From a virus, in the IMG/VR virus record IMGVR_UViG_3300028840_006907, positions 224,001-288,000 of that record: a stretch of DNA of 64,000 nucleotides; one strand, written 5' to 3'. The position numbers and the translations under genes are program-made. This document shows, one piece after another, positions 6,001 to 61,823 of the stretch (position 1 is the first letter of the stretch; each line of letters begins with the position of its first letter). The notes beneath the pieces were generated by a model. That model ran no database searches. It saw only the letters and a program-made list of their open reading frames with translations, and had not been told where the DNA came from.

Positions 6001-9000
6001 AGGGCGTTTATAGAATCAGGTTTTTTAAGAGTCAGTGACGGTACTACAGCTTCTCCAATACCTTCATGGGGTGCTACTGGTGCCACAGGAAATACTGGGG
6101 CTACAGGATCCACAGGGGCTACAGGATCAGGGACTCAAGGAACAACAGGAGTTCAAGGATCTGCCGGGGCTACTGGAGCTACTGGACCGGCTGGAACTGG
6201 TTCTACAGGAGTCCAAGGTGTCCAGGGTGAAACCGGTATTCAGGGTCTCCAAGGTGATACGGGTGTTAGTTTAGGAGCAACAGGCTTGCAAGGTATCACA
6301 GGTCTCAGGGGATTCACGGGACTGCAGGGTCAAACCGGTGTTGCTGGGGAAACCGGAGTTCAGGGAGTGCAGGGACAAACCGGAGCTTTTGGTGGCCCTC
6401 CAGGAGAAACTGGCGTGCAAGGTGTCCAAGGAAACACTGGAGTACAAGGAACTACTGGAGTTCAAGGATCAACCGGAGTTCAAGGAATTCAAGGTCAGAC
6501 CGGAATTCAGGGAATCCAAGGAAATACTGGAGTACAAGGAATTCAAGGTAATACTGGAGTACAAGGTCAAACCGGAGTAAGTGGAGAAACTGGAGTACAA
6601 GGAACTACTGGAGTTCAGGGTATTCAAGGTCAAACTGGTATAGCAGGTCAGACAGGTATAGCAGGTCAAACCGGAGTTCAAGGAATCCAGGGAATTCAAG
6701 GTCAAACAGGTGCCCAGGGTTTAACAGGAGTAGCAGGTGAGACTGGAGTCCAAGGATCTCAGGGAAATACCGGAGTTCAAGGTATCCAAGGGCATACGGG
6801 AGCTGGGATACAAGGTACTACTGGTGTTCAAGGTTTACAAGGTCAGACTGGCTCTCAAGGTACTACTGGAATTCAGGGAGAAACTGGTGTAGGTATCCAA
6901 GGTCAGACGGGTGTTGCCGGTGTTGATGGCCAAACCGGAATTCAAGGAATCCAAGGAACCACAGGAGTTCAAGGTGAAACAGGAACTCAAGGAATTCAAG
7001 GAAATACCGGAATTCAAGGAACTCAAGGAAGCACAGGAGTTCAAGGAGAAACTGGAGTTGGTGCTCAAGGAACTACTGGAGTGCAAGGAATACAAGGAAA
7101 TACTGGAGTTCAGGGAACAACCGGAGTTCAGGGAATTCAAGGTCAAACCGGTGTTCAGGGAACACAAGGAGAAACAGGTTATATAGATTCTTCCAGTGTT
7201 AATCATAACGCTCTTCTTAATTTAACTGTTGGTGATGACCATACTCAGTATGCTTTTTTAGCTGGTCGTACTGGTGGGCAAACTATAAATGGTGGTGATG
7301 CTGCTTCAGACGTTTTAACTCTTCAAAGTACTACTGATACTACAAAAGGGAACATCATTCTTAATCCTATTAGTGGGGATGTCCCTGGTAAAGTTGGTAT
7401 AGGAGTAACATCTCCGATTTATCAATTACATGTTGGAGAGATTTTAGATGGCGGTACTGTAGGTATATGTATAAATAACCAGTATACTGCAAATGGATCA
7501 GTTGATGAAACTGCTAGTTTAATATATAGATTTGGTAGGCCACTCAGTCCTCAATATAGAGTAGCAGGTCAAGTATTAGTAGGTAAGGAACAGGATTGGT
7601 GGGATTATAATAGTACTGACGCTTATATGGCTTTTCATACTACTCGTGATACAATTTCACGTGAACAGATGAGAATTAATGCTCAAGGTTATGTTGGAAT
7701 AGGTACAACAAATCCCCAAGCTAAGCTTCATGTAACGACATTTGCTCAATTTGATGAAGGCTTTTCAACTAATATCGGTATAGGTGTTACCGCTCCTCAG
7801 GCACAGTTACATGTCGGAGAGAGTGTAACTGATGGAGATGTTTCAATAATTGTGAATAACTGGTCTTGGACTGGAGGGTCTGTAGATGAGACAGCTAGTT
7901 TACAATTCCGTTTTGGGCCTCCTCCAAGTAATTATTCTGCTGGTAAAATTTCTGCTCATAAAACTTTAGATTATATGAGTTTCGATAATAGAGACTCTTA
8001 TATGACTTTTAGTGTTGTAAATAATCAATCTGAAGTTGAGCGTATGAGGATTTTAAATGATGGAAAGGTAGGTATTGGTACAACTGATCCTCAAGAAAGA
8101 CTGCATGTAATTGATAGGGGTCAATTTGATATGGGGCTACAACAACCTATTGGTATAGGTGTAACGGCTCCATTAGCTGAATTACATGTTGGTAATAGTA
8201 CTAATGGTGGTGATGTAGGCATTATTATTAATAACCAATACAATACTACTGGATCAGTTGATGAAACAGCAAGTTTAATTTATAGATTCGGTACAGTAGG
8301 AAGTGCAAATTATCGAGTAGCTGCCAGAATTTGTGCTCATAAAGAATTAGACTGGCAATCTTTTGATAATGTCGATTCAGCTTTAGCTTTTAGGACTACT
8401 CGAAATCAATCTGAAAATGAAAGAATGAGAATAACTAGTGAAGGTGATGTAGGAATTGGTACTGTCACACCTTCAGAAAAATTACATGTAGAAGGTAATA
8501 TTTATACTACTAATGGTTTTCTTGCTGGTGGGAACATCCAAATTGAAGGGGACTTTTTAGGAGGGACTGATGGTAATTCTAATTTAGGCTCTACTTCAAG
8601 AAGATTTAATAACCTTTATATGGCTTCTTCGATAAATTATAATTCTGATCTAACCTTTGATTGTACGGGTACCCATGTAACCCTTACAACTGGTGGTAAC
8701 GTAGGTATAGGAACTACAAATCCCCAAGGATTATTTCATGTTTCTGATGATACCAATGGTGGTGATGTAGGTATTGTTGTTAGTAATCGCTATATTGGTG
8801 GTGGGTCAGTTGATGAAACAGCTAGTATGATTTATCGTTTTGGCCATCCGTTAGGAGTAGCTAATAAAGTTGCAGCCAGAATAAGTGCCCATAAAGAATT
8901 AGATTGGGCAAACTCTAATAATACTGATGCTGCTTTGATTTTCTGGACTACTCGTGATGCTGTTGAACGACAACAGATGAGAATTGATAGCAATGGTTAC

Positions 9001-10053
9001 TTAGGAATCGGTATAACTAATCCTCAGGAAATATTACATGTAGATGGTAATATCGTAGGATCATCTGGTTCTAATTTAGGGTCTGCTGCATTAAGATTTT
9101 CTAATCTTTATTTGGCTTCTTCTATAAACTATAATTCTGATCTTAATTTTGATTCAACAGGAACACATGTCACTTTTACAACAGGTGGTAATGTAGGTAT
9201 AGGTACTACAGATCCGCAAGCATTATTACATGTCTTTGATAGTACTAACGGTGGTGATGTTGAAGTTATAATTACTAATGACTATTATAGTGTTAGTTCG
9301 TTGGATGAAACTACCAGTATAACTTTTCAAAATAGAGGTCACGATGGTAATAGGTATACTGCAAGTAGAATTCTTTGTGGAAAAGAAGGAGATTTTAGTA
9401 TCTCTGATAGAAAAGGTTATCTAGCTTTCCATACAGTTAATCAAAGTTCATTTGAAAGAATGCGAATTACTTATGATGGTAATGTCGGTATAGATACTAC
9501 GGCACCTTTAGATAAGCTTTCTGTCGAAGGTCAAATGTCTGTGACTCTTGCAGGTGATCGAAAATTTAAAGTAGATAGTACAGGACAAATTTATTCCGAT
9601 GCAGGTACATCAATATTTACTCCTGCTGACCTTGCTGAATGGTCAAAGGTAGAGGGGTATCTGGAAGAATATGAGTTAGGTATGGTAGTACAACAATCCT
9701 GTGTAGATTTAACCGTTAAGCTAGCTGATAGCCCTTCTGAGAGAGTATATGGTGTGGTTACAAACCGTGCCACATTTTTGGGAAGTCTTACTGGTATTGA
9801 TAAGAAAATATTAAAAGAATTAACGGATAGTGAGATAGAAGATGAGTTCAATGCCAAAAAAATAGCAATGGTAGGGCATGTTCAAGTTCTGGTAAAGGGT
9901 ACCGTTAATATAGGTCAGTCATTGACTCTTTCTGATAAGAAAGGAATAGCACGGGGAGCTACAACTTTTGAAGAAAAAGCTCTGGCTCTTGGTATTGCAA
10001 GAGAAAGTTATGATTCAACCGATATAGGACTTATTGAGGCGAGATTATTATAA
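3040..10053 (+). CDS. giant virion fibre protein (BNR/Asp-box propeller + collagen-like tract + GIGT..LHV fibre repeats + C-terminal capping-type module)
   Basis: GTG start 6 nt after AGGAGG; 2,337 aa. About nt 3460-4300 carries repeated Asp-box-like motifs (TTDSGNSW, TINDGTSW, TTDGTTW, TTNGGTSW, TDDAGSTW). About nt 6070-7175 is uninterrupted G-X-Y (GVQGETGIQGLQG...). Nt 7390-9520 has ten copies of [VI]GIGxTxPxxxLHV spaced by conserved GGDVGIxxNN...GSVDETASLxYRFG...MRI units. The C-terminus reads ADLAEWSKVEG...GMVV...YGVVT...VGHVQVLVKG, resembling fibre C-terminal autoprocessing or chaperone modules. Confidence 0.85.
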   Translation: MSEVYQGDYAPNLYNEEKRYYLFQAQQLTNLTDAELRDLHNISNTYVRRTVQAQIGDCAIQDGYKIAENTSDKSNNFLITGGSGTLDDPGMYYLKGYRLFLLGDIAYKDQTDTGTITDDGYTKTILPALTTPTGVTSTLNSLSLSNPTLICCGDTSAIANSSDWGRNWVDRNAMTSQNLNGSSLGDASVGYAVGNVGAVLRTTDSGNSWINIRTSLPTLPTNYQNVNFFDAYFVNSSIGWITGQSGAILKTINDGTSWTVQGSGVTTSDLSGVHGTGLTDVWAVGSSGMVVKTTDGTTWSQQASGTLFNLSRVHAINTLVAYAVGNSGTIIKTTNGGTSWSALTSDTTENLRDVHFTDLNNGWAVGDNGTITRTDDAGSTWDSSTIASVDLRAVTFYDTTGFTAGGSGEIYRTLDNTNWVKYRTDYVYIDFHLAEVSGDATSGSEYIDTSLVDATVGYPSANRLRVVSDVKVSEGWPAPADYTNTDATLQHYIAPLASIERSVGTSDITSANITDLRTVVRTIGEIDAALKDGSIGTSAIADGAITPDKLDSTGDYTMGSLSILGDSSIAGDLTIGGILVVSDYRTSTIMDNLVVRGSAQLGDSTAPYEDSVNIYGNITQVLDSTKIAYDIQTSSTTDASPIIKIVSDSTGSVWHVESKSQTTSSLFDATTQNMGYDFHLNHLGYEGGLFKLRDDASNHTITISKTAPGFRGSVLDVTSNSNDPTINIVNRALSDSTSLSIDQTHGTMITLNTLGDASGIDIYSQGSGRDLHIDHSGTLGIAVDITSSSAQVAMNLVNQMGPAVVITQNGDDEALLVLNKDSTTLGRALEINHRGSDVGLGVYNTGTGMGQLISHVGDSTHPALDIYVAGNEKGPALRINKANDETGEGIRVWNQGFSESLRLIQDRTDSSATVLLIESQSIGYDVSSSNWNIDSSGNIYTAGSITSDSTATVTSSKFAFDSTYYMTSTGMYLDNSGYDSSNPAVAGRAFIESGFLRVSDGTTASPIPSWGATGATGNTGATGSTGATGSGTQGTTGVQGSAGATGATGPAGTGSTGVQGVQGETGIQGLQGDTGVSLGATGLQGITGLRGFTGLQGQTGVAGETGVQGVQGQTGAFGGPPGETGVQGVQGNTGVQGTTGVQGSTGVQGIQGQTGIQGIQGNTGVQGIQGNTGVQGQTGVSGETGVQGTTGVQGIQGQTGIAGQTGIAGQTGVQGIQGIQGQTGAQGLTGVAGETGVQGSQGNTGVQGIQGHTGAGIQGTTGVQGLQGQTGSQGTTGIQGETGVGIQGQTGVAGVDGQTGIQGIQGTTGVQGETGTQGIQGNTGIQGTQGSTGVQGETGVGAQGTTGVQGIQGNTGVQGTTGVQGIQGQTGVQGTQGETGYIDSSSVNHNALLNLTVGDDHTQYAFLAGRTGGQTINGGDAASDVLTLQSTTDTTKGNIILNPISGDVPGKVGIGVTSPIYQLHVGEILDGGTVGICINNQYTANGSVDETASLIYRFGRPLSPQYRVAGQVLVGKEQDWWDYNSTDAYMAFHTTRDTISREQMRINAQGYVGIGTTNPQAKLHVTTFAQFDEGFSTNIGIGVTAPQAQLHVGESVTDGDVSIIVNNWSWTGGSVDETASLQFRFGPPPSNYSAGKISAHKTLDYMSFDNRDSYMTFSVVNNQSEVERMRILNDGKVGIGTTDPQERLHVIDRGQFDMGLQQPIGIGVTAPLAELHVGNSTNGGDVGIIINNQYNTTGSVDETASLIYRFGTVGSANYRVAARICAHKELDWQSFDNVDSALAFRTTRNQSENERMRITSEGDVGIGTVTPSEKLHVEGNIYTTNGFLAGGNIQIEGDFLGGTDGNSNLGSTSRRFNNLYMASSINYNSDLTFDCTGTHVTLTTGGNVGIGTTNPQGLFHVSDDTNGGDVGIVVSNRYIGGGSVDETASMIYRFGHPLGVANKVAARISAHKELDWANSNNTDAALIFWTTRDAVERQQMRIDSNGYLGIGITNPQEILHVDGNIVGSSGSNLGSAALRFSNLYLASSINYNSDLNFDSTGTHVTFTTGGNVGIGTTDPQALLHVFDSTNGGDVEVIITNDYYSVSSLDETTSITFQNRGHDGNRYTASRILCGKEGDFSISDRKGYLAFHTVNQSSFERMRITYDGNVGIDTTAPLDKLSVEGQMSVTLAGDRKFKVDSTGQIYSDAGTSIFTPADLAEWSKVEGYLEEYELGMVVQQSCVDLTVKLADSPSERVYGVVTNRATFLGSLTGIDKKILKELTDSEIEDEFNAKKIAMVGHVQVLVKGTVNIGQSLTLSDKKGIARGATTFEEKALALGIARESYDSTDIGLIEARLL
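6070..7175 (+). repeat. collagen-like (G-X-Y)n coding repeat inside the 2,337-aa fibre gene
   Basis: 9-bp-periodic GGN-NNN-NNN coding with degenerate ggagttcaaggaa-type units. It creates many shadow ORFs on both strands. Confidence 0.9.
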
Positions 10054-12978: not shown

Positions 12979-12999
12979 CCTTTATAAATATTATACCAG
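12979..12999 (-). promoter_or_regulatory. conserved extended -10 promoter motif, family 2 (CTGGTATAATATTTATARAGG)
   Basis: The minus strand reads CTGGTATAATATTTATAAAGG (TGnTATAAT). A 20/21-identical copy lies at 21974-21994. Both sit upstream of minus-strand genes. Confidence 0.6.
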
Positions 13000-13089: not shown

Positions 13090-13428
13090 TTAGTCTAAAA
13101 ACTTCTCAATATTTTCTATTGAATTAATGATTTTACCATTTTCTTGTATGAAATAAAATCTTTTTCCACATTTTATACAACTTATTACAGCCATGTTGGG
13201 AACAACTTCTTTAAAATGAAATTGATTATTGATTTGATCTATTACTGATTGCATATTTGAGAAGATGGTATTTCTTTGATATAATGTGAAGACATATTTA
13301 CAGTGAGGGCAGATAATTCGATGAGGATCAACAATTTTTTCCTTATGTTTTTTTATAAGTTCTATGATAAAACTTATAATAATGTAAATACTGAGAAAAG
13401 TCATGGGAAAAATTAATAATTCTTTCAT
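13090..13428 (-). CDS. small membrane-anchored zinc-ribbon protein
   Basis: 112 aa. N-terminal hydrophobic helix (LLIFPMTFLSIYIIISFII), then ICPHCKY...CIKCGK (two CxxC pairs). Start is 1 nt after the upstream stop. Confidence 0.55.
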   Translation of the reverse strand: MKELLIFPMTFLSIYIIISFIIELIKKHKEKIVDPHRIICPHCKYVFTLYQRNTIFSNMQSVIDQINNQFHFKEVVPNMAVISCIKCGKRFYFIQENGKIINSIENIEKFLD

Positions 13429-13429
13429 T

Positions 13430-13813
13430 CTAAAGATAATCCTCTATTCGTTTAGCCTTTTCATTCAGATATAATAGGACTTTTTCATCATCTTTGATTT
13501 TACCTTTATCATCGATATATGAAGTCATCTCAATAGATTTGATAGGTTTAACAGTCCCATGATTGATTTCAATTTTTCTATGTACTCCTTTTACTAACAA
13601 GTCAATTTCTTCTTTCTCATCTGAGTCCCAGTGGTACTCTGGGAATAAATAATTAATCTGATTCTTACCATAACCTTTAAATCGACTCAGGATGAAACTG
13701 TTATCAAATTTGTTAAATATGCCTAAAGTCGAATTTCTTGCCATTATAAGATACAGGCAATTGTGTATACATTTATTTAATGGGACATATGATTTAAATT
13801 TCTCTATGCTCAT
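13430..13813 (-). CDS. hypothetical protein
   Basis: 127-aa ORF directly downstream of the E1-like gene in the same operon. No motif recognised. Confidence 0.55.
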   Translation of the reverse strand: MSIEKFKSYVPLNKCIHNCLYLIMARNSTLGIFNKFDNSFILSRFKGYGKNQINYLFPEYHWDSDEKEEIDLLVKGVHRKIEINHGTVKPIKSIEMTSYIDDKGKIKDDEKVLLYLNEKAKRIEDYL

Positions 13814-13828
13814 TGAGTAATATATTTT

Positions 13829-14470
13829 TTATCTATCAAATTCTGAAATTTTCATATCTTTTAAAGTGATTATATAATTCTTTTTAACACCACTCTCAAT
13901 GAATTTGATTAATGACTCCGATGCTACTGCCACTGCCAGAAGTATAATATTCCTGGCCAATGGGTACTCGCATACATCAGGAGCTATCGTGTCTTTTGGG
14001 ACGGTATAAGATTCGTTCCATATTATTTCCGCGTAATCCTGAGACAGCCCGACATGTAAACAGCTCAAACCATTATCCTTACAATATTGATAAACTAATT
14101 TTCGGCTAATATTATTATCAAAAGAATCGATGATAATATTTGGTTTTTTCAAATATTTACTCACAGTAGTTTTATTAAGTTCTTTACTATTGGCATTCAA
14201 AACAGTTTTGGTTGAAGCATATGCTCTCATTTTCATAGTCGCTACTTTGTAGGTACCTTTTTCATTTTGGTTCCAGATCTGGGTACCATTATTGTGAGGT
14301 TCAATTCTGTCTTTATCGATAATTGTAATTTCTTTGAATCCCTGTCGAACTAAATTATCACAAAGATTTGACCCTATTGCTCCGACACCACAGAGTGTAA
14401 TTGGGGTTGTTGATAATTTACCAACTACTTCTTCAGATCGATACATTCTTTCATGTATTAATAAATCCAT
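13829..14470 (-). CDS. E1-like (ThiF/MoeB-family) adenylation-domain protein
   Basis: 213 aa. Rossmann motif ITLCGVGAIGSNLCDNLVRQGFKEITIIDKDRIEPHNNGTQ (GxGxxG followed by D-x-D...N...Q), then IIDSFDNNISRKL (the DN of ThiF-type folds). A Cys sits in DVCEYPLARN. The usual Arg of N-x-x-R-Q is Thr here. Confidence 0.75.
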   Translation of the reverse strand: MDLLIHERMYRSEEVVGKLSTTPITLCGVGAIGSNLCDNLVRQGFKEITIIDKDRIEPHNNGTQIWNQNEKGTYKVATMKMRAYASTKTVLNANSKELNKTTVSKYLKKPNIIIDSFDNNISRKLVYQYCKDNGLSCLHVGLSQDYAEIIWNESYTVPKDTIAPDVCEYPLARNIILLAVAVASESLIKFIESGVKKNYIITLKDMKISEFDR

Positions 14471-14474
14471 AATA

Positions 14475-14999
14475 TCATCCTATCCTAGCTATAATGCGAT
14501 CTTTTAACAAGACAAAGGGAATTTCAATACAACCTACAATCCGGTCTTTGTCTCTTTTATATAAATAAAATCTTTGTACTTCTGATTTGATTCCACATAA
14601 TAACGGTTTACCCAAAGCTTTGACCCAACCAGTCATAGTTTTATCATCTAAGGATGAAGGTTCCATTATATTACTTGGATGAGTATGATTAAAACCTACT
14701 ATTTTATTTCTGTCTCTGATTACTTTTTCCCAGTCAAAATCAACTGAACCAGGACCACCAGTGGATTCATAGATTAGTCTACCATAAATCCATTTGCAGT
14801 ATTTTTTACCATATATGATCCAACAATTTTCGTTAATTGTTTGTACTACTTCAATAGCTTCTATTGTTAATTTATTTTTATTGTAAATACCTTTATATGT
14901 TCGACCACATTCTGGGCATGGCATTCTTTGTGTTTCATTTTCTGTAATCCAGCATATATATTTTCCGCACTTACATGTAAATTCACTGCTTTCGGGCAT
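14475..14999 (-). CDS. zinc-ribbon + JAB/MPN+ (JAMM) metallopeptidase
   Basis: 174 aa. N-terminal CKCGKY...CPECGR. Exact JAMM signature GFNHTHPSNIMEPSSLD (H-x-H-x7-S-x2-D). Confidence 0.8.
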   Translation of the reverse strand: MPESSEFTCKCGKYICWITENETQRMPCPECGRTYKGIYNKNKLTIEAIEVVQTINENCWIIYGKKYCKWIYGRLIYESTGGPGSVDFDWEKVIRDRNKIVGFNHTHPSNIMEPSSLDDKTMTGWVKALGKPLLCGIKSEVQRFYLYKRDKDRIVGCIEIPFVLLKDRIIARIG

Positions 15000-15025
15000 A
15001 GGGATATATCCTTATTTTAGATTTT

Positions 15026-15925
15026 CTAATACAACGTTCTACTTATTTGATGAGTGCGTTGACCCTCTTTTATTACAGAAATTAATGCTTTTAAATCATA
15101 GTCTTTATCACCAACATGACCTGTTTCATGGTCGGTTAAACAGATGCCTGCAGTAATAACGTGGTGACTTTGATCTTTAGTAACAATAGTATTAAATTTC
15201 TCTCCATCGATTTCATATGTTACATAAATATGATCCGATTTTTCATCACTGCTCAGGTATTTACCTCCGGCAAATTCTATATCACGTTGAATCTTTGTTT
15301 TTTTCTTTTCTTCAAGTGCTCGTTCACGTTCTTCTTTGATTTTTAAATCGATTTTGTATTTTATGTTAAAAGCAATTTTCTCCTCCAATGTCAGACCAGA
15401 GAATTTTAATTTAGATGGGTCTCTGAATTCTTTCAGGGACTCATTAAGATAATCTGTAATCATCGGATCGGCTGACATATCCATTGAATCAAACCAGATA
15501 TTAGCTCCGTCAAATCGGCATAGACATTTAGAAAATGTTGTAACCATATCATCGAAAAGAAGAACTGGGTATAATTCTGATACTTTTAATCCCAGATGAT
15601 TACTCTTTATCGGGATCCCAAGATAAAAATCTTTCTTTTTATGTACTAAAACCATTCTTATCTTTGGTAAATATTTAAGATAAGATTGAATCTCATCTAT
15701 TTCCGCTAAATCTATTGCTTCAGCCCGTTTATTATCAAGTGCTTTGAATTTGTACCATCCCGGTTCTGTTTTCGGGATGTTTAAGTAATGAATAATTCCT
15801 TGAATACGGATAATGATTCGGTCATTATAATACACAGGAGAAATGATAGTCTTTTCAGTCATCATTTCTTCCTGTTTCCCTATTTTATCAATAAGGTTTA
15901 AAATATTATCTTTTCTTACGGTCAA
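15026..15925 (-). CDS. hypothetical protein with C-terminal E2/UBC-like active-site motif
   Basis: 299 aa. TTG start with GAGGAA 5 nt upstream, overlapping the upstream gene by 20 nt. The C-terminus YVTYEIDGEKFNTIVTKDQSHHVITAGICLTDHETG...LKALISVIKEG resembles the UBC motif HPN-x3-G-x-ICLD...SI-x-LL. The N-terminal ~220 aa has no recognised motif. Confidence 0.45.
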   Translation of the reverse strand: MTVRKDNILNLIDKIGKQEEMMTEKTIISPVYYNDRIIIRIQGIIHYLNIPKTEPGWYKFKALDNKRAEAIDLAEIDEIQSYLKYLPKIRMVLVHKKKDFYLGIPIKSNHLGLKVSELYPVLLFDDMVTTFSKCLCRFDGANIWFDSMDMSADPMITDYLNESLKEFRDPSKLKFSGLTLEEKIAFNIKYKIDLKIKEERERALEEKKKTKIQRDIEFAGGKYLSSDEKSDHIYVTYEIDGEKFNTIVTKDQSHHVITAGICLTDHETGHVGDKDYDLKALISVIKEGQRTHQISRTLY

Positions 15926-17462
15926 AAGATTTCCTCACGGGTAAAGGTGTATCCATGATCTCATATAGAAGATCGAGTTTTGATTTTCTGGATAGCAATG
16001 GAATTAATCCAGGCAATCCATAGTAATCGCTACCTTCAGGTTCATAGTAATCGAAAGGTATTCTAGCTTGTTTTAAATACATGCTGAATTCTTTACGACT
16101 CCATGAACTTGGAATGTAAATAATAGTAATAGTAGGAGTCACATTAAATTTTTTAACATAATTATCCCATATCTCAACGAAAAATGGATTATTATTTTCA
16201 CCTTCATCAGTGACCACTATTATCTGTTCTACATAATAGTTTTTTCTAATAAGGTAATCTAATGCTATACCTATGGAAGTCCCACCATTACTTTTTACAG
16301 GTCTGAAAGCCCTTTCCCAGGCAGACATATTCGGTTCATTAGCTGTGATCTCTCTGGCCATTGTATCAAAAGTAATAGCATAGAGAGGAGCTTCTGTAGC
16401 ACCTGAAATAAGAGCCGCAACATTTTTTCCGACTTCGATGGCTTGAGTCATAGAACCTGATTTATCGATAAAGACTGCAGTAGGTACTTTTATAACACCT
16501 TTCTTTTTAATTTGCTGATCTGCAATTTCATCGAGGATCTTTTGAGATTCCTCATTTTTGATCCGACCTGTTTTCTTTGCTTCTTTGGATTTTAAAGCTG
16601 ATACATTTTTAGCTTTTTTAGCTTTTTCCAATTTAGCCGTAATCAATGTTTTTGTATCCTCATTGTCCATGGCACCACGTTCTTCTAGGGAAGCATAGTT
16701 ATTAATAACTTCCTGTGGAGACATAGCATTGATTAGAGCAATCAGAATTGTAGGAGTGATTTGATCAACCAAACCTACAGCCACCGTATAAGGTACTTTA
16801 TGTTCTATAATCAGCTTTGCCACTTCAGTCGGATTATCAGCTTGTGCTATTTTTTCGAAAACATTTAATTTACTGTCCGTAGGACGTTCATTTCCGAAAA
16901 GAATCTTCTGAGCACGTTCACTAGGTGCTATACGAAGAGTAGCATATAATCCTTTAAGATCTTTTGGACTTTTTAGGGCAATAGCATCAAAAAGATCGTT
17001 GTTGGTTTCAATATATTGAAGAAATTTCTCAACATCCCTTTTAAAGGCAGTAGGAATATTTTTGTAAAGACCTACATTTTTTTCTTCAATTTTTACTTCA
17101 TCGATCATTTTTTTCTTCATTTTTATTTTTTTGCCCGTTTTATTTCTGATCTTTATTTTTTTACCTTTAATAAAACCGACCACACGTCTTTTAAGATATA
17201 CAGGTATTTCCCTGAAGAGGGCTAGCCCAACTTCACGGTTGTCAAGAAATTCATCAACAATAAGTGAACCGATGAATACTTCTTTATGATCCCGAATATC
17301 TCCATTCTTGTAGTACCAGCTTCCAAGGTGGGCATAAAACAGCGGATCTGCTTTTTGTAATTCAAGATGGGTATTTTTTAATTTATCTAGGTCCCGGTGA
17401 GGGCAACTCAGAAATGAGTTAAGCATGTTAACTCTGATATCATTTTCGTTAGCTTGGTTCAT
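15906..17462 (-). CDS. Ro60/TROVE-like protein with C-terminal vWA (MIDAS) domain
   Basis: 518 aa with AAGGAGG upstream. The C-terminal ~190 aa parallels the Ro60 vWA block by block: VFIDKSGSM (DxSxS), AITFDT, NGGTSIGIAL, QIIVVTDEGEN. The N-terminal ~330 aa is helical with ADPLFYAHLGSWYYKNGDIRDHKEVFIGSLIV, similar to the TROVE N-terminal signature. Contains a Lys-rich insert (GKKIKIRNKTGKKIKMKKK). Confidence 0.6.
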   Translation of the reverse strand: MNQANENDIRVNMLNSFLSCPHRDLDKLKNTHLELQKADPLFYAHLGSWYYKNGDIRDHKEVFIGSLIVDEFLDNREVGLALFREIPVYLKRRVVGFIKGKKIKIRNKTGKKIKMKKKMIDEVKIEEKNVGLYKNIPTAFKRDVEKFLQYIETNNDLFDAIALKSPKDLKGLYATLRIAPSERAQKILFGNERPTDSKLNVFEKIAQADNPTEVAKLIIEHKVPYTVAVGLVDQITPTILIALINAMSPQEVINNYASLEERGAMDNEDTKTLITAKLEKAKKAKNVSALKSKEAKKTGRIKNEESQKILDEIADQQIKKKGVIKVPTAVFIDKSGSMTQAIEVGKNVAALISGATEAPLYAITFDTMAREITANEPNMSAWERAFRPVKSNGGTSIGIALDYLIRKNYYVEQIIVVTDEGENNNPFFVEIWDNYVKKFNVTPTITIIYIPSSWSRKEFSMYLKQARIPFDYYEPEGSDYYGLPGLIPLLSRKSKLDLLYEIMDTPLPVRKSFDRKKR

Positions 17463-17483
17463 AATATCTCATCCTCCTTATGT

Positions 17484-17750
17484 TCAGGTTTCAATTTTTC
17501 CGAAAGTAGCATTTGGTCTAACTGTAATGTTACCATTTTTATGGTGTTCAACAACTAATTCAGCAAATTCTGATGCTGGTCTATCATAATGATCTACTAA
17601 AGCCAATTTAATTTGTTCACCAGTTATATTATCCGATGTGATCTCGGTTCCTGGTTCAATCCCGAGTTGTTCCCATCTGTCTTCTGGGAAAAGATCTTTG
17701 AGATTAATATCTTCAGTTTGACCATCATACATTATATGGACTTCACTCAT
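17484..17750 (-). CDS. small acidic protein, candidate ubiquitin-like (beta-grasp) modifier
   Basis: Start revised to the ATG at 17750, with GGAGG 5 nt upstream; the 109-aa version in the track lacks an RBS. 88 aa: MSEVHIMYDGQTEDINL...ITVRPNATFGKIET. First gene of the E2/JAB/E1 operon, with a Gly 4 residues from the C-terminus. Confidence 0.6.
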   Translation of the reverse strand: MSEVHIMYDGQTEDINLKDLFPEDRWEQLGIEPGTEITSDNITGEQIKLALVDHYDRPASEFAELVVEHHKNGNITVRPNATFGKIET

Positions 17751-17790: not shown

Positions 17791-17807
17791 ATTATACGAC
17801 ACGAGAT
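17791..17807 (-). promoter_or_regulatory. conserved promoter motif, family 1 (CTYCRTGTCGTATAAT)
   Basis: The minus strand reads ATCTCGTGTCGTATAAT, about 40 nt upstream of the 17750 start. The same TGTCGTATAAT core recurs at 18956-18972 and 61807-61823 on the plus strand. Confidence 0.6.
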
Positions 17808-17888
17808 TAACATTTCATTAAGTAAAAAATTGGGTAGAATATAAATTCTTGTGTGTCATCATGGTAAATAACTTTTTTAAAAAAATTA

Positions 17889-17917
17889 TTGACACACTTA
17901 AAATTTATGGTTATATT
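17889..17917 (+). promoter_or_regulatory. sigma70-type promoter of the RNA operon
   Basis: TTGACA (17889-17894), a 17-nt spacer, then TATATT (17912-17917). The predicted start near 17924 coincides with the first base of the RNA1 closing helix. Confidence 0.7.
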
Positions 17918-17923
17918 ATTGAC

Positions 17924-18063
17924 AGTTCTGCACTCTAACTTTTGATGCTTACATAGAGAAAATAGCTCAGTTGGTCAGAGCGCGAGATTTAGGTTCTTGA
18001 AGTCTTCGGTTCAATTCCGAATTTTCTTACCATAAAATTAGCACCTTCAACTTGTGCAGAACT
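17924..18063 (+). ncRNA. structured RNA unit 1: shared closing module enclosing a complete tRNA
   Basis: Perfect 10-bp terminal helix AGTTCTGCAC (17924-33) / GTGCAGAACT (18054-63). Family module just inside it: 5' TCTAACTTTTGATGCTTACA and 3' GCACCTTCAACTT. The cargo is the tRNA at 17956-18032. Confidence 0.6.
17956..18032 (+). tRNA. tRNA, anticodon UAG (Leu by the standard table), class-I shape, CCA encoded
   Basis: Hand-folded cloverleaf. Acceptor GAGAAAA/TTTTCTT (G1-U72). D-arm GCTC-AGTTGGTCA-GAGC. Anticodon arm CGAGA-TTTAGGT-TCTTG (U33, anticodon TAG at 17990-92, G37). 5-nt variable loop AAGTC. T-arm TTCGG-TTCAATT-CCGAA, A73, then CCA. Confidence 0.85.
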
Positions 18064-18199: not shown

Positions 18200-18248
18200 A
18201 ATATAGATTGTAAAGTGTTGTAAAATAAATTTGATCTTTGAAAATTAT

Positions 18249-18430
18249 AGGATAATGCCTTCTAACCTGTTGGGCTTACAAATTTTACTGGTTCGACTCC
18301 AGGTTCCGCCTCTCGGTCCTTTTGTAAAGATTGTAAAGGATCAGGAGGCGGAACAAGCCGGGTGGTCTGGCGATTGAATGCAAATCAATTTATTTGAAAT
18401 TAACGCTCTTTTAACTTGGGCATTTATCCT
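18249..18430 (+). ncRNA. structured RNA unit 3: closing module + circularly permuted tRNA-like core (Y-RNA/YrlA-like)
   Basis: Terminal helix AGGATAATGCC / GGGCATTTATCCT (one bulge), followed by TTTTTT. Order inside: T-arm CTGG-TTCGACT-CCAG (18288-302); a 20-bp closed acceptor-like hairpin (18303-354); AA; D-arm GCC-GGGTGGTCT-GGC; and hairpin ATTGA-ATGCAAA-TCAAT. Confidence 0.6.
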
Positions 18431-18477
18431 TTTTTATAGTAATTTATAATTTTATATAAAGTGATCTTTGAAAATAT

Positions 18478-18660
18478 GAGGTAAGTGCCTCCTAACATAA
18501 CGGGCTTACAAATTAATAGGGTTCAACTCCCTGTTCCCCCGCCTAAGTCTTTGTCATATAATGATTAAGATTTGGGCGGGGGAACGAGCTGGGTGGTTCA
18601 GCAATCAACGTTTAATTGATGAAAAACATTTTTACGCTCTTTTAACTTAGGCACTTACTC
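18478..18660 (+). ncRNA. structured RNA unit 4: closing module + circularly permuted tRNA-like core
   Basis: Terminal helix GAGGTAAGTGCC / GGCACTTACTC, followed by TTTTT. T-arm AGGG-TTCAACT-CCCT. Closed acceptor-like hairpin GTTCCCCCGCC...GGCGGGGGAAC. D-arm GCTG-GGTGGTT-CAGC. Hairpin ATCAA-CGTTTAA-TTGAT. Confidence 0.6.
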
Positions 18661-18681
18661 TTTTTATTAAATTGAAATTAC

Positions 18682-18858
18682 AAGGAGCACCTTCTAACCT
18701 GTTGGGCTTACAAGTTATTCGGGGTTCAAATCCCTGTCCCGGCACTAGGTTGATTCCCTAAAAGTCAACCCAGTGCCGGGATAGCCAAATTGGTAAAGGC
18801 GACTATATTGAACATAGTAAACAAAACTATCTACGCTCTTTTAACTTGGGTGCTCTTT
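18682..18858 (+). ncRNA. structured RNA unit 5: closing module + near-perfect circularly permuted tRNA
   Basis: Terminal helix AAGGAGCACC / GGTGCTCTTT. T-arm CGGGG-TTCAAAT-CCCTG (18720-36). Acceptor 3' strand TCCCGGC + A73, a linker hairpin, then acceptor 5' strand GCCGGGA (18775-81). U8 A9, D-arm GCCA-AATTGGTAA-AGGC, and anticodon arm ACTAT-ATTGAAC-ATAGT (UGA at 18809-11). Confidence 0.6.
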
Positions 18859-18899
18859 ATATATTTCTCGCAAAAGGAATACAGGGTGAAACAGGAGTA

Positions 18900-18940
18900 T
18901 AGGGATTAAGAAGAAATTTTTGATCCCTATTTTATTTTTT
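18900..18940 (+). terminator. intrinsic terminator closing the RNA operon
   Basis: Stem TAGGGAT (18900-06) / ATCCCTA (18923-29), then TTTTATTTTTT. The loop is rather large (16 nt). Confidence 0.5.
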
Positions 18941-18955
18941 CCCGGATTTTCCCTA

Positions 18956-18972
18956 CCTTCATGTCGTATAAT
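18956..18972 (+). promoter_or_regulatory. conserved promoter motif, family 1
   Basis: CCTTCATGTCGTATAAT, 44 nt upstream of the 19016 start. 16 of 17 positions match the copy at 61807-61823. Confidence 0.6.
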
Positions 18973-21973: not shown

Positions 21974-21994
21974 CCTCTATAAATATTATACCAG
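21974..21994 (-). promoter_or_regulatory. conserved extended -10 promoter motif, family 2
   Basis: The minus strand reads CTGGTATAATATTTATAGAGG, 34 nt upstream of the 21940 start. Confidence 0.6.
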
Positions 21995-22250: not shown

Positions 22251-25200
22251 ATGGCCAAGACAAAAAGGAAATGGATTGAGCTGGATTGGTACAATCCCAA
22301 TGCCTTACGTGCACAAGACATACCTTACGATCAAACCGAAAGTGTAAAAGATGCTATAGATAGAGCTGCCTCTGGAGTTCTCGGTCCGACGGGGACCACG
22401 GGTTCGACCGGTTCAACAGGTTCGACGGGTCCAACGGGTCCGACGGGAGCCACGGGTGCGACGGGAGCAGGAATCCAGGGTGAAACCGGAGTCGCTGGAG
22501 TTCAAGGAGCTACCGGAACCGGTGGTGGTGGAGATACTGGTGTCCAGGGTGAGACCGGTTTACCCGGAGCCACAGGAATCCAAGGTACAACCGGTATCCA
22601 GGGAACTACAGGAATCCAAGGTGAAACTGGAATCCAGGGACATACAGGTACAGTTGGAACAACGGGTGTTCAAGGAGAAACCGGTTCTCAGGGTACTACT
22701 GGAATCCAGGGAGAAACTGGAGTAAAAGGTGAAACTGGTATTCAAGGTCAAACCGGTATAGCTGGTGGAGCAGGATTTCCAGGAGCAACTGGAGTCCAGG
22801 GCGAAACCGGAGTCCAAGGAACTACTGGGGTTCAAGGGGAAACCGGGGTTCAAGGAACCACAGGAGTAGCCGGAGCAACCGGAGTCCAGGGAACTACTGG
22901 CGTCCAGGGAACTACTGGCATCCAAGGTGAAACGGGTGTCCAGGGAGATACTGGAGTTGGTGCCACTGGAATCCAAGGAACCACAGGTATCCAGGGTCAA
23001 ACCGGTGTTCAAGGTATCACCGGAGCTTATGGTGGTCCTCCTGGAGAAACTGGTGTCAAGGGAGAAACCGGAGTACAGGGGGCTACTGGAATCCAAGGTC
23101 TTCAAGGATTGCAGGGAACCAAAGGTGAGACCGGAACACAAGGTATTCAAGGCCAGACCGGAGTTCAGGGAGAAACTGGAGTTCAAGGGCAGACTGGTAC
23201 AGGTGCTCCAGGAGCCACTGGAGTTCAAGGGCAGACTGGTATCCAGGGAACCACTGGAATAGGTTTAGGTTCAACAGGAGTAGCGGGAGCAACTGGAATT
23301 CAAGGTACTACCGGAGTTCAAGGTAGGACTGGAGTCCAAGGATTTACCGGAGCTGCTGGTTTAGGTGAAACTGGTATCCAAGGAGCTACCGGAGTCCAGG
23401 GTGCCACAGGTATTCAAGGGACTACTGGTGCAGGAATCCAAGGAGCCACAGGTATTAGTGGTGACACGGGAGTTCAAGGAGCCACAGGAATTAGAGGTAC
23501 TACTGGTGCAGGAATCCAAGGAGCCACGGGGGTTCAGGGCATTCAAGGTCAAACTGGAGCCCAGGGCGAAACCGGAGTCCAGGGTGAAACCGGAATAGAA
23601 GGTTCTCAATTTGCAGGATTTAATTATAAAGCAAAAACAGACAATCAATCTGATACAGATCCTGGTATAGGAAATTTAAAGTGGAGTGCTGTAGCTCAAG
23701 TCACATCTAGTGAGCTTTATGTGGATGATGCTGACGTTAATTCTACGGATCTCAGTAATTTTTACCTCACTTTAAAAGCTGCCGACTCTTTACGTATTGT
23801 TCGTATGGAAGATCCTTCTCAGTATCAGATTTTTAATATAACAAACGTTACTGATAGAACCGGATGGTTCCGTTTATCTGTTACACCTGTTGTTTCAGGT
23901 GGTTCGACTTTTAGTTTAAATGATAATATCATACTGATATTTAGTATATCAGGTCCTAGAGGTCAGACCGGAGTAAAAGGTGAGACTGGAATTCAAGGAA
24001 CTACAGGTGTTGCCGGAGCCACAGGAGTCCAAGGTCAAACTGGAATTCAGGGTCAAACTGGAATCCAGGGCATACAGGGCCAGACTGGAATTCAAGGACA
24101 AACTGGTATTCAAGGTCAAACAGGAATCCAAGGTCAGACAGGTGTTGGCGCTCAGGGTGCTACTGGTGTAGCTGGTCAAACCGGGGTCCAGGGAGAAACT
24201 GGGATACAAGGTCAGACTGGTGCAGGAATCCAGGGAACTACTGGTGTTCAAGGCGTTCAAGGATTAACAGGTGTGCAAGGCCAGACAGGTGCCGGAATCC
24301 AAGGTGAAACCGGAGTCCAGGGTACTCAAGGTTTAACCGGTATACAGGGTCAGACAGGTGCTGGAATCCAAGGAGAGACTGGTGTTCAGGGAAACACTGG
24401 GGCTTTTGGTGGTCCTCCCGGAGAAACTGGTGTTCAGGGAGAAACTGGTGCACAAGGTTTAACTGGAGTCCAAGGTCAAACCGGAGCAGGTATTCAGGGA
24501 GCCACTGGTATTCAAGGAGTTACTGGAGTTCAAGGCCAAACCGGTGCTGGTATTCAAGGAGTCACTGGAATCCAAGGACAAACTGGTATACAGGGTCAGA
24601 CAGGAGTAGCAGGTCAGACCGGAGTCCAAGGAATACAAGGCCAGACAGGAGTAGCAGGTCAGACCGGAGTTCAAGGAATTCAAGGACAAACCGGAATAGC
24701 AGGTCAGACCGGAGTTCAGGGTATACAAGGTCAAACTGGAATTCAAGGGCAGACTGGTGCTGGAATCCAAGGTACAACTGGAGTAGCCGGAGCTACAGGA
24801 GTTCAGGGAATTCAAGGTCAAACAGGAGCTGGAATCCAAGGTACAACTGGAGTCCAGGGAACTACAGGAGTTCAAGGTGAAACTGGTACTGGTATTCAGG
24901 GAGAAACTGGTACGCAAGGTATTCAGGGTCAAACCGGAATTCAGGGACAGACTGGGATTCAAGGTAATACTGGTGTAAAAGGTGAAACCGGAGTTCAGGG
25001 TTTTCCAGGTCCTCAGGGTACGAAAGGTGATACTGGTGCTCAAGGTATTCAAGGTGAGACAGGAACTCAAGGAATTCAGGGCCAAACTGGAGTAGCTGGA
25101 GAAACTGGAGTTCAGGGTCAAACGGGTACTCAAGGAATTCAGGGTCAGACTGGTGTAGCTGGTGCAACTGGTGCGGGAATTCAAGGTCAAACTGGTGTTC

Positions 25201-28200
25201 AAGGAATCCAAGGTCAGACTGGAATCCAGGGGCAAACTGGAGTCCAGGGTGAAACAGGTATAGAAGGATCTTTATGGGCTGGATTTAGTTATAATGCCAA
25301 GACTGATGATCAGTCAGATACAGATCCTGGTACAGGGAATCTTAAATGGAGTACTGTTGCTCAGGTAAATGCGGGTGAACTTTATGTAGATGATACTGAT
25401 CAATATTCCATAGATTTAAGTAATTTTTATCTTACGTTAAAGGCTGGTGATTCTCTTCGAATAATTCGTCAGGAAGACCCTTCTCAATATCAAATTTATA
25501 ATATAACAAATGTTACAGATAGAACAGGTTGGTTCCGTCTTAGTGTGACCTATGTTACTTCAGGTGGATCTACTTTCAGTCTTAATGATAATATTATTCT
25601 TGTTTTTGTTAAAGCTGGAATTCAAGGTCAGACAGGTGCCCAAGGTATTCAAGGTCAAACAGGAGTCCAAGGAATTCAAGGACAGACTGGAGTTCAAGGA
25701 GCCACAGGTACCCAAGGAATTCAGGGGCCACAAGGCCAGATAGGTCTTCAAGGTACTACTGGGGTCCAAGGTGAAACCGGAGTCCAGGGCACACAAGGTC
25801 AGACGGGTATCCAGGGTACAACAGGTGCCGGGATTCAGGGTCAAACCGGAGTCCAGGGAATTCAGGGTCAAACCGGTATTCAAGGTCAAACAGGAGCAGG
25901 TATTCAGGGAGCTACTGGTATTGCTGGTATAGATGGTCAGACTGGAATCCAGGGTGAAACCGGAATTCAGGGCCAAACTGGAGCTGGTATTCAGGGAGCT
26001 ACTGGTATTGCTGGTATAGATGGTCAGACTGGAATCCAGGGTGAAACCGGAATTCAGGGCCAAACTGGAGCTGGAATCCAAGGTGAAACCGGTATCCAAG
26101 GAATTCAAGGATTAACAGGTATTCAAGGTACAACTGGTGCTGGCATTCAGGGAGAAACTGGAGTACAGGGTACACAAGGTCAAACAGGTGTTCAAGGTCA
26201 AACAGGTGCCGGAATTCAGGGTGAAACCGGAGTCCAGGGCACACAAGGTCAAACCGGTATTCAGGGTCAAACTGGCGCTGGTATCCAAGGTGTGACAGGA
26301 ATTCAAGGAATACAAGGACAAACTGGTATCCAGGGTCAAACGGGTGCCGGAATCCAAGGAGAAACCGGAGTCCAGGGAGAAACAGGAATACAAGGTCAGA
26401 CTGGTGCAGGAATCCAGGGAACTACTGGTGTTCAAGGCGTCCAAGGATTAACAGGTGTCCAGGGTCAAACTGGTGCTGGTATTCAAGGTGAAACCGGAGT
26501 CCAGGGTACTCAAGGTTTAACTGGTATACAGGGTCAGACAGGTGCTGGCATTCAGGGAGAAACCGGGGTCCAGGGAGAAACTGGAATACAAGGTCAGACT
26601 GGTGCAGGGATTCAGGGTGTGACAGGAATTCAAGGTCAAACTGGAGTTCAGGGAACTACAGGAATCCAGGGTCAAACAGGTGTTGGGATCCAGGGTGTGA
26701 CTGGAGTTCAAGGAATTCAAGGTCAAACCGGTATTCAAGGTCAAACCGGTATTCAAGGTGAAACCGGAGTGTCTGGAGCTACAGGTATTCAGGGAATTCA
26801 AGGTCAAACCGGAATCCAGGGTCAGACCGGAGTCCAAGGAGAAACAGGTGTACAAGGTTCTACAGGTGTATTAGGTGATCCTAATTGGATAGATTTTGTA
26901 CCTCAAGCATCTGCTCCTAGTCATCAGGAAGCTCGCCTTTTTTATGATTCAACAGACCATTCATTGAGTTATTACAATGAAGAATCTGATGTTACCCTGA
27001 ATTTAGGTCGTGAATTATATATCAGAGTGTATAATGCAACAGTTTCAACAATAACTAACGGTCAAGTAGTTTATGTCACAGGTGTTGCTGCAGGATACCC
27101 CACAATAGATTTAGCAGATGGTAGTGATTTAACTAAGACTAATAATATAGGAGTGGCTACTCATAATATAGAAGCCTCAACATTTGGTTATATCACATTA
27201 TTTGGATTAGTAAGAGATATTAATACTAATGCTTTCAGTGCTGGTGATGAAGTTTGGTTAAGTGAAAGTACTCCAGGTGGTTACCAGTCTTTTGCAGGTA
27301 CATATGCCGTTAAAATAGGTTATGTTGTTGTTTCAGATACATTAAATGGTTCAATAATGGTAGCTATGGGTGATACGGAAGCTACTATAGCTGGATTGAA
27401 TGATGTAAATCTTACTAGTATCTCTGATGGTCAGTATTTACAATGGGACTCGGATTCTACTAAATGGGTTAATGTTTCTGAAAGTCCTCAAGGTGATACA
27501 GGTATCCAAGGAGCAACTGGAGTTCAAGGAATTCAAGGAACTACAGGAGTTCAAGGAGCAACTGGAGTTCAAGGTATTCAAGGAACCACAGGAATTCAAG
27601 GACAGACCGGAGTTCAGGGTGAAACCGGAATTCAAGGAACTACAGGAGTCCAGGGAGAAACTGGTACTGCAGGAATAGACGGTCAGACAGGAGTTCAGGG
27701 TGAAACCGGTATTGCAGGAATAGATGGTCAGACAGGAGTTCAAGGTACTACCGGAGTTCAGGGAATTCAAGGAACTACAGGAATTCAGGGAGAAACCGGT
27801 ACTGCAGGAATAGACGGTCAGACAGGAGTTCAAGGTGAAACTGGAACTGCAGGAATAGACGGTCAGACAGGAGTTCAAGGTACTACCGGAGTTCAAGGAA
27901 CCACTGGAATTCAAGGTACTACCGGAATTCAGGGAACTACTGGAATTCAGGGAGAAACCGGTACTGCAGGAATAGACGGTCAGACAGGAGTCCAAGGTAC
28001 TACTGGGATTCAGGGGGAAACCGGAGTCCAAGGTACCACAGGGATTCAGGGAGAAACCGGAGTCCAAGGTACTACTGGAATTCAGGGAGAAACTGGTGTT
28101 TTTGGGATTGTCAATTATATCGATTATGAACCTCAAGATACAGTTCCTTCTCATTTAGAAGGTCGTACCTTTTATGACAGTACAGATCATTCTTTAAGTT

Positions 28201-61783: not shown

Positions 61784-61806
61784 ATTTTTTGCTTAATACT
61801 TACCCT

Positions 61807-61823
61807 CCTTCGTGTCGTATAAT
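61807..61823 (+). promoter_or_regulatory. conserved promoter motif, family 1
   Basis: CCTTCGTGTCGTATAAT, 43 nt upstream of the 61866 start. Confidence 0.6.

Follow-up and report, generated by a model that had tools for sequence, protein, structure and literature searches.

The three short motifs studied here lie in a 64-kb stretch of DNA (the window) from an uncultivated jumbo phage of 389 kb whose genome carries terminase, prohead protease and major head genes. One copy, on the minus strand, precedes an operon that encodes an 88-aa Ubl-like protein and a Ro60 homologue. The other two, on the plus strand, precede large multi-domain glycosyltransferase genes, hereafter GT875 and GT693 after the lengths of their products (Table 1). 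The metagenomic source contig (JGI 3300017963, Ga0180437_10000019, 388,651 bp) supplied flanking sequence as well, about 9.4 kb on the upstream side of the window and about 10 kb on the downstream side.

Table 1 Features in the 64-kb window; positions are those of the window unless a related locus (L number) is named.
Feature	Position	Strand	Details
Motif copy 1 (Ubl)	17791-17807	minus	17-mer ATCTCGTGTCGTATAAT, read from the sequence
Ubl cassette	17791-17830	minus	T-tract 17830-17823; CTTAATG box 17822-17816; 19-nt spacer including TCTCGTGTCG 17815-17797; TATAAT 17796-17791; putative start G at about 17784
Motif copy 2 (GT875)	18956-18972	plus	17-mer CCTTCATGTCGTATAAT, read from the sequence
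GT875 cassette	18933-18972	plus	T-tract 18933-18940; degenerate box CCCGGAT 18941-18947; spacer with CTTCATGTCG; TATAAT 18967-18972; putative start A at about 18979
Motif copy 3 (GT693)	61807-61823	plus	17-mer CCTTCGTGTCGTATAAT, read from the sequence
GT693 cassette	61784-61823	plus	T-tract 61784-61791; CTTAATA box 61792-61798; spacer with CCTTCGTGTCG; TATAAT 61818-61823; putative start G at about 61830
Operon downstream of copy 1	13090-17750	minus	From Pfam, fold searches and synteny in relatives
88-aa Ubl-like protein	17484-17750	minus	
Ro60 fold homologue, 518 aa	15906-17462	minus	
Multi-barrel protein (not E2), 299 aa	15026-15925	minus	
JAB (weak match)	14475-14999	minus	
ThiF/E1	13829-14470	minus	
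Two small ORFs at operon end	down to 13090	minus	
Promoter of tRNA/structured-RNA array	17889-17917		TTGACA-17-TATATT
tRNA	17956-18032	plus	Between GT875 and the Ubl operon
Three tandem structured RNAs	18225-18860	plus	Paralogous, about 190 nt each
Terminator-like hairpin and T-run	18899-18930	plus	Closes the tRNA/structured-RNA array before copy 2
GT875 gene, 875 aa	19016-21643	plus	Methyltransferase, GT2, TPR, GT9 (Pfam); downstream of copy 2
GT693 gene, 693 aa	61866-63947	plus	GT2, TPR, methyltransferase (Pfam); downstream of copy 3
Repeat arrays of the 2337-aa and 3078-aa ORFs	6000-7200, 22400-31000	plus	9-nt-periodic, collagen-like
CTGGTATAATAT family	12988-12998, 21983-21993; L134 519; L219 8848	minus (both window copies)	
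TTAATAATCTTYTRATA family	42210, 46813, 47260, 51023 (variant 59282); L132 2819		

The operon behind copy 1 had been labelled Ubl/Ro60/E2/JAB/E1 in the original prediction, and these labels fared unevenly. Ro60 holds at the level of fold: the 518-aa protein has no sequence match in Pfam or the PDB, and its AF2 model (pLDDT 79) finds only Ro60/TROVE structures among its 13 best PDB matches, all over the full length (TM 0.53-0.69), which confirms from the predicted structure a full-length Ro60 (TROVE + vWA) fold homologue. E1 likewise holds, with a strong ThiF match (1.9e-23). The JAB match is weak (21.9 bits against a cut-off of 25). The E2 label is not supported: the model of the 299-aa protein (pLDDT 86.5) contains several beta-barrels, lacks a UBC fold and gives only weak OB/S1/CSD-like matches; judged from this model, the protein may bind RNA as a partner of the Ro60 module. 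The 88-aa protein ends in an invariant RPNATFG followed by a tail of 1-4 residues, a C-terminus compatible with that of a JAB-processed Ubl. PDB sequence and profile searches returned nothing for the Ro60, ‘E2’ or ‘Ubl’ proteins. In two related loci, the Ro60/JAB/ThiF operon additionally includes an RtcB RNA ligase gene (L134 12197-13543; L135 9755-12094, intein-sized in the latter), echoing the bacterial rsr-yrlA-rtcB association; the phage studied here has no RtcB at its Ro60 operon.

GT693 heads a long same-strand gene cluster that extends past the window and includes a 994-aa GT and a UDP-glucose dehydrogenase (gene table of L131). Elsewhere in the window, the ORFs of 2337 and 3078 aa hold long collagen-like repeat arrays that have many 12-mers in common and in which G+C rises to 0.45-0.49. 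Nucleotide synteny with 80 capsid-module relatives (78-94% identity in the major head protein) breaks off precisely where the major head gene ends, and the DNA from 53438 onwards (53.4-64 kb) is specific to this phage lineage.

Copies 1 and 2 face away from each other across a spacer rich in non-coding RNA. A tRNA occupies this spacer in every relative from L134 to L141, with an anticodon that differs from one to the next (Leu, Arg, Val, Ile/Glu, Asp). In the window, the tRNA is followed by three tandem structured RNAs with the conserved boxes CCTTCTAACCTGTTGGGCTTACAA and ACGCTCTTTTAACTTGGG in common. Their terminal stems carry compensatory changes (ATGCC/GGCAT, GTGCC/GGCAC, GCACC/GGTGC), as does an acceptor-like stem closed by a loop, and a tRNA-type T-arm is present. 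This architecture, adjoining the gene for a Ro60 homologue, is that of the YrlA-type bacterial Y RNAs, which are tRNA mimics. An Rfam search of the spacer (17.75-19.02 kb) identified the tRNA only.

The three 17-mers were found on reading the sequence exactly where, and on the strands on which, the original prediction had placed them. Their 11-nt core, TGTCGTATAAT, matches the window three times on both strands together, compared with a mean of 0.02 in dinucleotide-preserving shuffles, none of which (0 of 100) reaches three; the claim that the core occurs nowhere else is thus borne out for the window, and the flanks of the source contig hold no further copy. An exhaustive two-strand search, suggested at the outset for the full genome, has in this way covered the window and about 20 kb of flank, or about 84 kb of a 389-470-kb genome. 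Relaxing the pattern adds little. A 16-mer consensus with up to two mismatches recovers the same three sites only, and the 11-mer with up to two mismatches gives 25 matches against 22 expected, so that there are three sharp copies and no wider degenerate family. The sole one-mismatch match to the 11-mer (18552-18562) falls in a hairpin loop of one of the structured RNAs.

Placement is equally specific. All three copies are intergenic, in a window of which intergenic DNA makes up 5.7%, and each points toward its downstream gene; frequent occurrence inside genes, named in the original prediction as telling against it, is not what the window contains. The last T of TATAAT lies 40 nt (Ubl), 43 nt (GT875) and 42 nt (GT693) from the ATG, within the range of about 40-45 nt that had been estimated. 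For Ubl the true start is the ATG at 17750 behind a GGAGG, not that of a longer ORF, and GGAGG or AGG precedes the start codon downstream of every copy. The shorter string GTATAAT is strongly enriched between genes, with 6 of its 16 window copies in the intergenic 5.7%; five of these six stand 40-55 nt ahead of a start codon, and by their flanks these five fall into two families.

Searches further afield with the motif itself were unproductive. An exact-pattern scan of IMG/VR with CTTCRTGTCGTATAAT gave 19 matches; all are unrelated, apparently fall in ordinary (likely coding) sequence and show no resemblance to the window. Among relatives, 31 UvrD-helicase loci (607 kb, identity no higher than 52%) contained no copy, nor did the 80 capsid-module loci (919 kb), the latter count being uninformative because synteny ends right after the major head gene. 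A literature search for the motif string produced nothing relevant, and megablast of 10-24 kb against GenBank phages gave no match.

Aligned on the hexamer, the copies prove to be the cores of a promoter-like cassette of about 60 nt. A T-rich tract (about -46 to -39) is followed by a CTTAAT(G/A) box at -38 to -32 that ends exactly 19 nt before the hexamer; the last 8 nt of this 19-nt spacer form the block TC(G/A)TGTCG (-20 to -13), and a perfect TATAAT occupies -12 to -7 in all three copies. The similarity extends beyond the 11-mer, with TC(G/A)TG directly upstream of it common to the three. The seventh base downstream of the hexamer is a purine (G for Ubl, A for GT875, G for GT693), beyond which comes a leader of 33-36 nt that carries the ribosome-binding site. 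The Ubl and GT693 copies additionally share AATTTTTT(A/G)CTTAAT at the identical distance, and about 15 nt of tract is identical between them; in the GT875 copy the T-tract is present and the upstream box is degenerate.

None of the usual auxiliary elements accompanies the hexamer. A TTGACA-like -35 element at 16-18 nt was not found in the three copies; Ubl alone has ATGAAA at 16 nt, which is kept neither in L134 nor in the other two copies. The TG of an extended -10 is absent at -15/-14, where all three copies have T and C, and so is an AAC-type ECF -35 element at 16-17 nt. Secondary structure is not a common trait either: copy 1 forms a small hairpin (-7.6 kcal/mol, z = -1.95), and copies 2 and 3 are no different from shuffles, which excludes a hairpin or terminator as the common role. 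A 13-nt palindrome at copy 1, CGTATAATATACG, has no counterpart at the other two. The terminator-like hairpin with its T-run that closes the RNA array stands directly ahead of the GT875 copy. The three sites are very probably promoters of one class.

Relatives of the downstream genes allow this proposal to be compared across genomes. Homologues of the Ro60-like protein number more than 1,000 in metagenomic huge phages, with some mislabelled as proteins of Nanoarchaeia MAGs, and the Ubl-like and Ro60-like gene pair recurs in 67 of 83 fetched loci. By Ro60 identity the closest are L134 (79%), L135 (75%) and L136 (68%, from a 512-kb phage), which all keep the arrangement of GT875, a tRNA-bearing spacer of about 1-1.4 kb, the divergent Ubl-Ro60-...-JAB-ThiF genes and then UvrD. 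The divergent linkage of GT875 to the Ubl operon recurs in L134-L141 and L192. For GT693, orthologues were found in L217 (78%), L220 (74%), L218 (74%) and L219 (67%). Searching IMG/VR with Ro60, with GT875 and with the C-terminal part of the 2337-aa protein returned no relatives, and a GT693 profile found nothing in GTDB genomes and, in IMG/VR, only relatives at 51% identity or less with uninformative upstream regions.

Nine orthologous or paralogous promoters (from the window, L134, L135, L217 and L220) were aligned without gaps on the hexamer; as they come from three orthologous groups, they amount to few independent observations. All hexamers are TAnnAT (TATAAT, TAAAAT, TATTAT, TAACAT), and the L218 GT693 orthologue adds TATCAT, so that T-12, A-11, A-8 and T-7 are invariant in the nine and in L218. 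C at -38 is invariant in the nine, with a T-rich tract further upstream, and the box ending 19 nt before the hexamer reads CTTATCG, CTTATTG, CTTGTCG or CTTAATR. The Ubl orthologue of L134 thus reads ...CTTATCG-N19-TAAAAT and the GT875 orthologues of L134 and L135 CTTATCG/CTTATTG-N19-TATAAT/TATTAT; the GT693 orthologues of L217, L220 and L218 keep the box and the N19 spacing with TAACAT, TATAAT and TATCAT, respectively. The order of terminator-like hairpin and then promoter before GT875 is the same in L134 and L135.

Matrices trained on one gene set find the promoters of another. A matrix from the relatives' GT promoters puts the GT693 site of the window in first place and its Ubl site in second of 127,922 positions; one from the relatives' Ubl promoters places window GT693 second, and one from the GT693 relatives places window Ubl first, each of the same 127,922 positions. 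The window GT875 copy, a poor match to the upstream box, ranks 11-104 in these cross-gene tests. With the hexamer and proximal block masked, Ubl and GT693 rank 36-97 and GT875 1,865 and 13,093. Across 4.7 million positions of related loci, every score above 30 belongs to a training sequence, the one exception being the window's own GT693 site re-fetched in L131. The best independent match is the L218 GT693 orthologue (22.0 against a background maximum of 16.6), with its hexamer 5 nt from the ATG. Among 58 distinct relatives, GTAWAWT occurs 15-60 nt before the Ubl ATG in 20, compared with 2.1 expected. As far as comparison of sequences goes, these findings speak for genuine promoters and for a family that ties the three gene sets together in more than one genome.

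What the lineages do not have in common is the block next to the hexamer. At the Ubl promoter it reads TCGTGTCG in the window and L134 and TCGTGTAA in L135; at GT875, TCATGTCG in the window, TAACGTTG in L134 and CAATATTG in L135; at GT693, TCGTGTCG in the window, TAATTCCG in L217 and TAATTCCA in L220. The bases from -17 to -13 differ between the Ubl, GT875 and GT693 promoters of the relatives, and the exact TGTCG extension is common to all three loci in this phage only; it is not conserved in relatives and hence not required for the function of orthologous promoters. On these alignments, the family is defined by its bipartite layout and not by the 11-nt core.

The direction of change is informative in part. 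Ro60 identity pairs the window with L134 as sisters and leaves L135 as the outgroup. The window GT875 promoter has C-19 and C-14 where L134 and L135 both have A and T, so that both C bases are derived; both match the Ubl state. At GT693, 4 of 8 positions differ from L217 and L220, and at each of the four the window base equals the Ubl state, although the nearly star-like GT693 tree leaves the direction of these four changes tentative. Had all six differences arisen in the window lineage, each would have gone toward Ubl, with a probability of about (1/3)^6, or roughly 0.001, under equal rates; the two GT875 changes of resolved direction taken by themselves give about 1 in 9. The pattern suggests homogenisation toward the Ubl state, driven either by selection favouring one shared site or by short conversion. 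GT875 and GT693 encode paralogues only 34% identical over 330 aa, yet the 16-mers upstream differ at a single base, which argues for constraint rather than recent duplication alone. The Ubl operon is unrelated to the GT genes.

The 512-kb relative (L136/L219; Ga0392328_0000002) departs from this scheme. Its Ubl operon promoter is of the TGGGTATAAT type, and at both of its GT orthologues a leaderless-like TGTACCATTWAT immediately precedes the ATG. GT875 and GT693 therefore share their promoter type with each other there, as they do in the window/L134-type lineages, and on present comparisons the link of Ubl to the GT promoters is restricted to the window, L134 and L135 lineages. A -10-like element 0-5 nt before the ATG is seen at GT orthologues in L136 (about 8312-8330) and L219 (about 9985-10000), both TGTACCATTWAT, and in L218 (2127-2171, CAGTATCAT), which suggests leaderless mRNAs in these relatives. 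The original prediction of a promoter family joining the Ubl/Ro60 operon to the two GT genes is supported by position, orientation, -10 element, conserved layout and matrix ranks of 1-2; it needs amending in that the 11-nt core is not the defining element and that the Ubl-GT link is not universal.

Other promoter-like sequences of the phage look different. The promoter of the tRNA/structured-RNA array in the same spacer is a textbook TTGACA-17-TATATT, and two small genes carry CTGGTATAATATTTATA, a true extended -10. This second family, CTGGTATAATAT(T/A)..., stands before small ORFs and is kept in relatives. A third, TTAATAATCTTYTRATA, precedes structural genes, recurs in the capsid-module relatives L044, L051, L055 and L078, and is probably a late class. 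Judged by motif, the phage has at least three or four promoter-like families, of which the TATAAT/CTTAAT cassette class is a distinct one.

With moderate confidence, we read the three cassettes as one promoter class with a sigma70-type -10 and neither -35 nor TG, factor-assisted, that would place the three loci under a common programme. The hexamer would most likely be read by host RNA polymerase with a sigma70-family sigma factor, as the invariance of T-12, A-11, A-8 and T-7 indicates. Given the lack of a TTGACA-like -35 and of TG, the class is probably weak alone and probably needs a further factor contacting the upstream CTTAxxG box, the TCRTGTCG block or both; it could be a phage activator, a sigma-remodelling protein or a repressor. 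The Ubl/Ro60 operon and the two GT-led loci would then follow a common expression programme unlike those of the CTGGTATAATAT and TTAATAATCTTYTRATA classes. The dedicated regulator or sigma factor of the original prediction is an inference; the only sigma-like gene nearby lies about 6 kb upstream of the window (L132 3774-4412) and encodes a 212-aa protein whose only Pfam domain is a sigma70 region-4 HTH (residues 45-91), with no region 2; by Pfam it does not qualify as a true sigma factor. The subset of window and flank ORFs scanned against Pfam or PHROGs yielded no ECF sigma gene and no match to MotA or AsiA. A stronger version of the same reading, in which a recently fixed phage factor or sigma-remodelling system recognises the TC(G/A)TGTCG block and the CTTAAT box at its unusual 19-nt distance and, through selection-driven homogenisation of promoters, recruited the two GT loci into a Ro60/Y-RNA/Ubl-JAB-E1 regulon, is unlikely, and we put it forward only tentatively.

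The three sites could instead be independent, ordinary host-sigma70 promoters, with no regulator or temporal class behind them and a shared block that reflects cassette descent together with short gene conversion or chance. TATAAT is after all a generic consensus, the orthologous promoters of relatives work with other bases at -17 to -13, the paralogous GT875 and GT693 genes also have similar leaders, and the identical tract of Ubl and GT693 spans only about 15 nt. The cassettes, however, have no -35 at 16-18 nt and no TG, unlike the tRNA promoter (TTGACA-17-TATATT) and the CTGGTATAAT class of the same phage. The two resolved GT875 changes (about 1 in 9) and the four GT693 differences all match the Ubl state, and the Ubl operon, though no GT paralogue, has the bipartite layout in several genomes. 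We regard this explanation as the less likely one.

Mobility offers another account, modelled on the promoter-early stem-loop (PeSL) cassettes of T4-type phages, in which the copies would mainly provide short stretches of homology through which accessory genes are shuffled. The three loci are all accessory, capsid-module synteny stops right after the major head gene, and the cassette is repeated and about 60 nt long, with a small hairpin at the Ubl copy. Only one of the three copies folds, though, no junctions or rearrangements were seen at the cassettes, and orthologous cassettes stand before the same genes in the same places in relatives of 65-79% protein identity, which indicates vertical inheritance; the account is improbable. 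Least probable of all is that the motif is no promoter but a repeat that arose by chance, an intrinsic terminator or hairpin in RNA, or a pair of inverted terminal repeats at the edges of a mobile tRNA/Y-RNA segment. A scan does flag 17806-17783 on the minus strand as terminator-like, and copies 1 and 2 form an inverted pair 1.17 kb apart around the non-coding RNA array. Against this, the shuffle counts exclude chance (3 versus 0.02), copy 1 alone folds and has no minus-strand gene upstream to terminate, copy 3 is solitary, and the divergent promoters of L134 and L135 are not inverted repeats of each other. The bounded-segment version was rejected because the inverted pair is not kept in those two loci.

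For huge uncultivated phages without transcript maps, motif families are the only handle on the expression programme. The one described here gives a testable grouping of a Ro60/Y-RNA-like/Ubl-JAB-E1 module with large multi-domain glycosyltransferases, and its cassettes are a ready sequence set for reporter or in-vitro transcription assays. It also provides a small, clean case of promoters turning over, and apparently being homogenised, inside a single phage lineage, with the bipartite layout kept and the proximal block lineage-specific. If the recent-regulon reading were true, RNA quality control and protein tagging would be coupled to glycosylation at one stage of infection.

Promoter classes are well known in phages, and such a class is in itself an expected and fairly ordinary form of phage gene control. 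The early promoters of phiKZ, reportedly mapped by dRNA-seq, are a motif-defined temporal class of a large phage. Such classes rest on mapped starts and, for phiKZ, on phage-encoded polymerases, whereas ours rests on sequence and comparison; in both, short sharp motifs lie 30-50 nt upstream of gene starts and divide, or in our case would divide, the genome into expression classes. Among ECF sigma promoters, that of B. subtilis sigmaW (TGAAAC-N16-CGTATA) comes to mind since the motif contains CGTATA, but relatives replace the CG (TTGTATAAT, CCATATAAT). A sigmaW-like reading was rejected, there being no AAC -35 at 16-17 nt and a neighbouring ‘sigma’ that is a region-4 HTH only. The cassettes also recall extended -10 promoters (TGnTATAAT) and the Gram-positive ‘-16 region’ (TRTGnTATAAT) in that bases directly upstream of the -10 are conserved and no -35 is needed, and T-17, G-16 and T-15 fit TRT; position -14, however, is C and not the essential G, and the true TGn class of this phage is a separate one (CTGGTATAATAT).

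The nearest analogy is with the middle promoters of phage T4, which combine a MotA box with a sigma70 -10 and are served by AsiA/MotA sigma appropriation. The MotA box, (a/t)(a/t)(a/t)TGCTT(t/c)A, is centred near -30, 11-13 nt from the -10. Here the box lies at -38 to -32 and ends 19 nt before the hexamer instead of about 12 nt, and in relatives it reads CTTAxxG/CTTGAAC, so a T4-type MotA-dependent middle promoter was rejected on spacing, and the scanned ORFs include neither MotA nor AsiA. The likeness is one of design: as in T4, a sigma70-type -10 is combined with a phage-specific upstream box in place of the canonical -35, the GT693 copy reads TTTGCTTAA, which resembles the MotA box, and the resulting regulatory class would serve non-structural genes.
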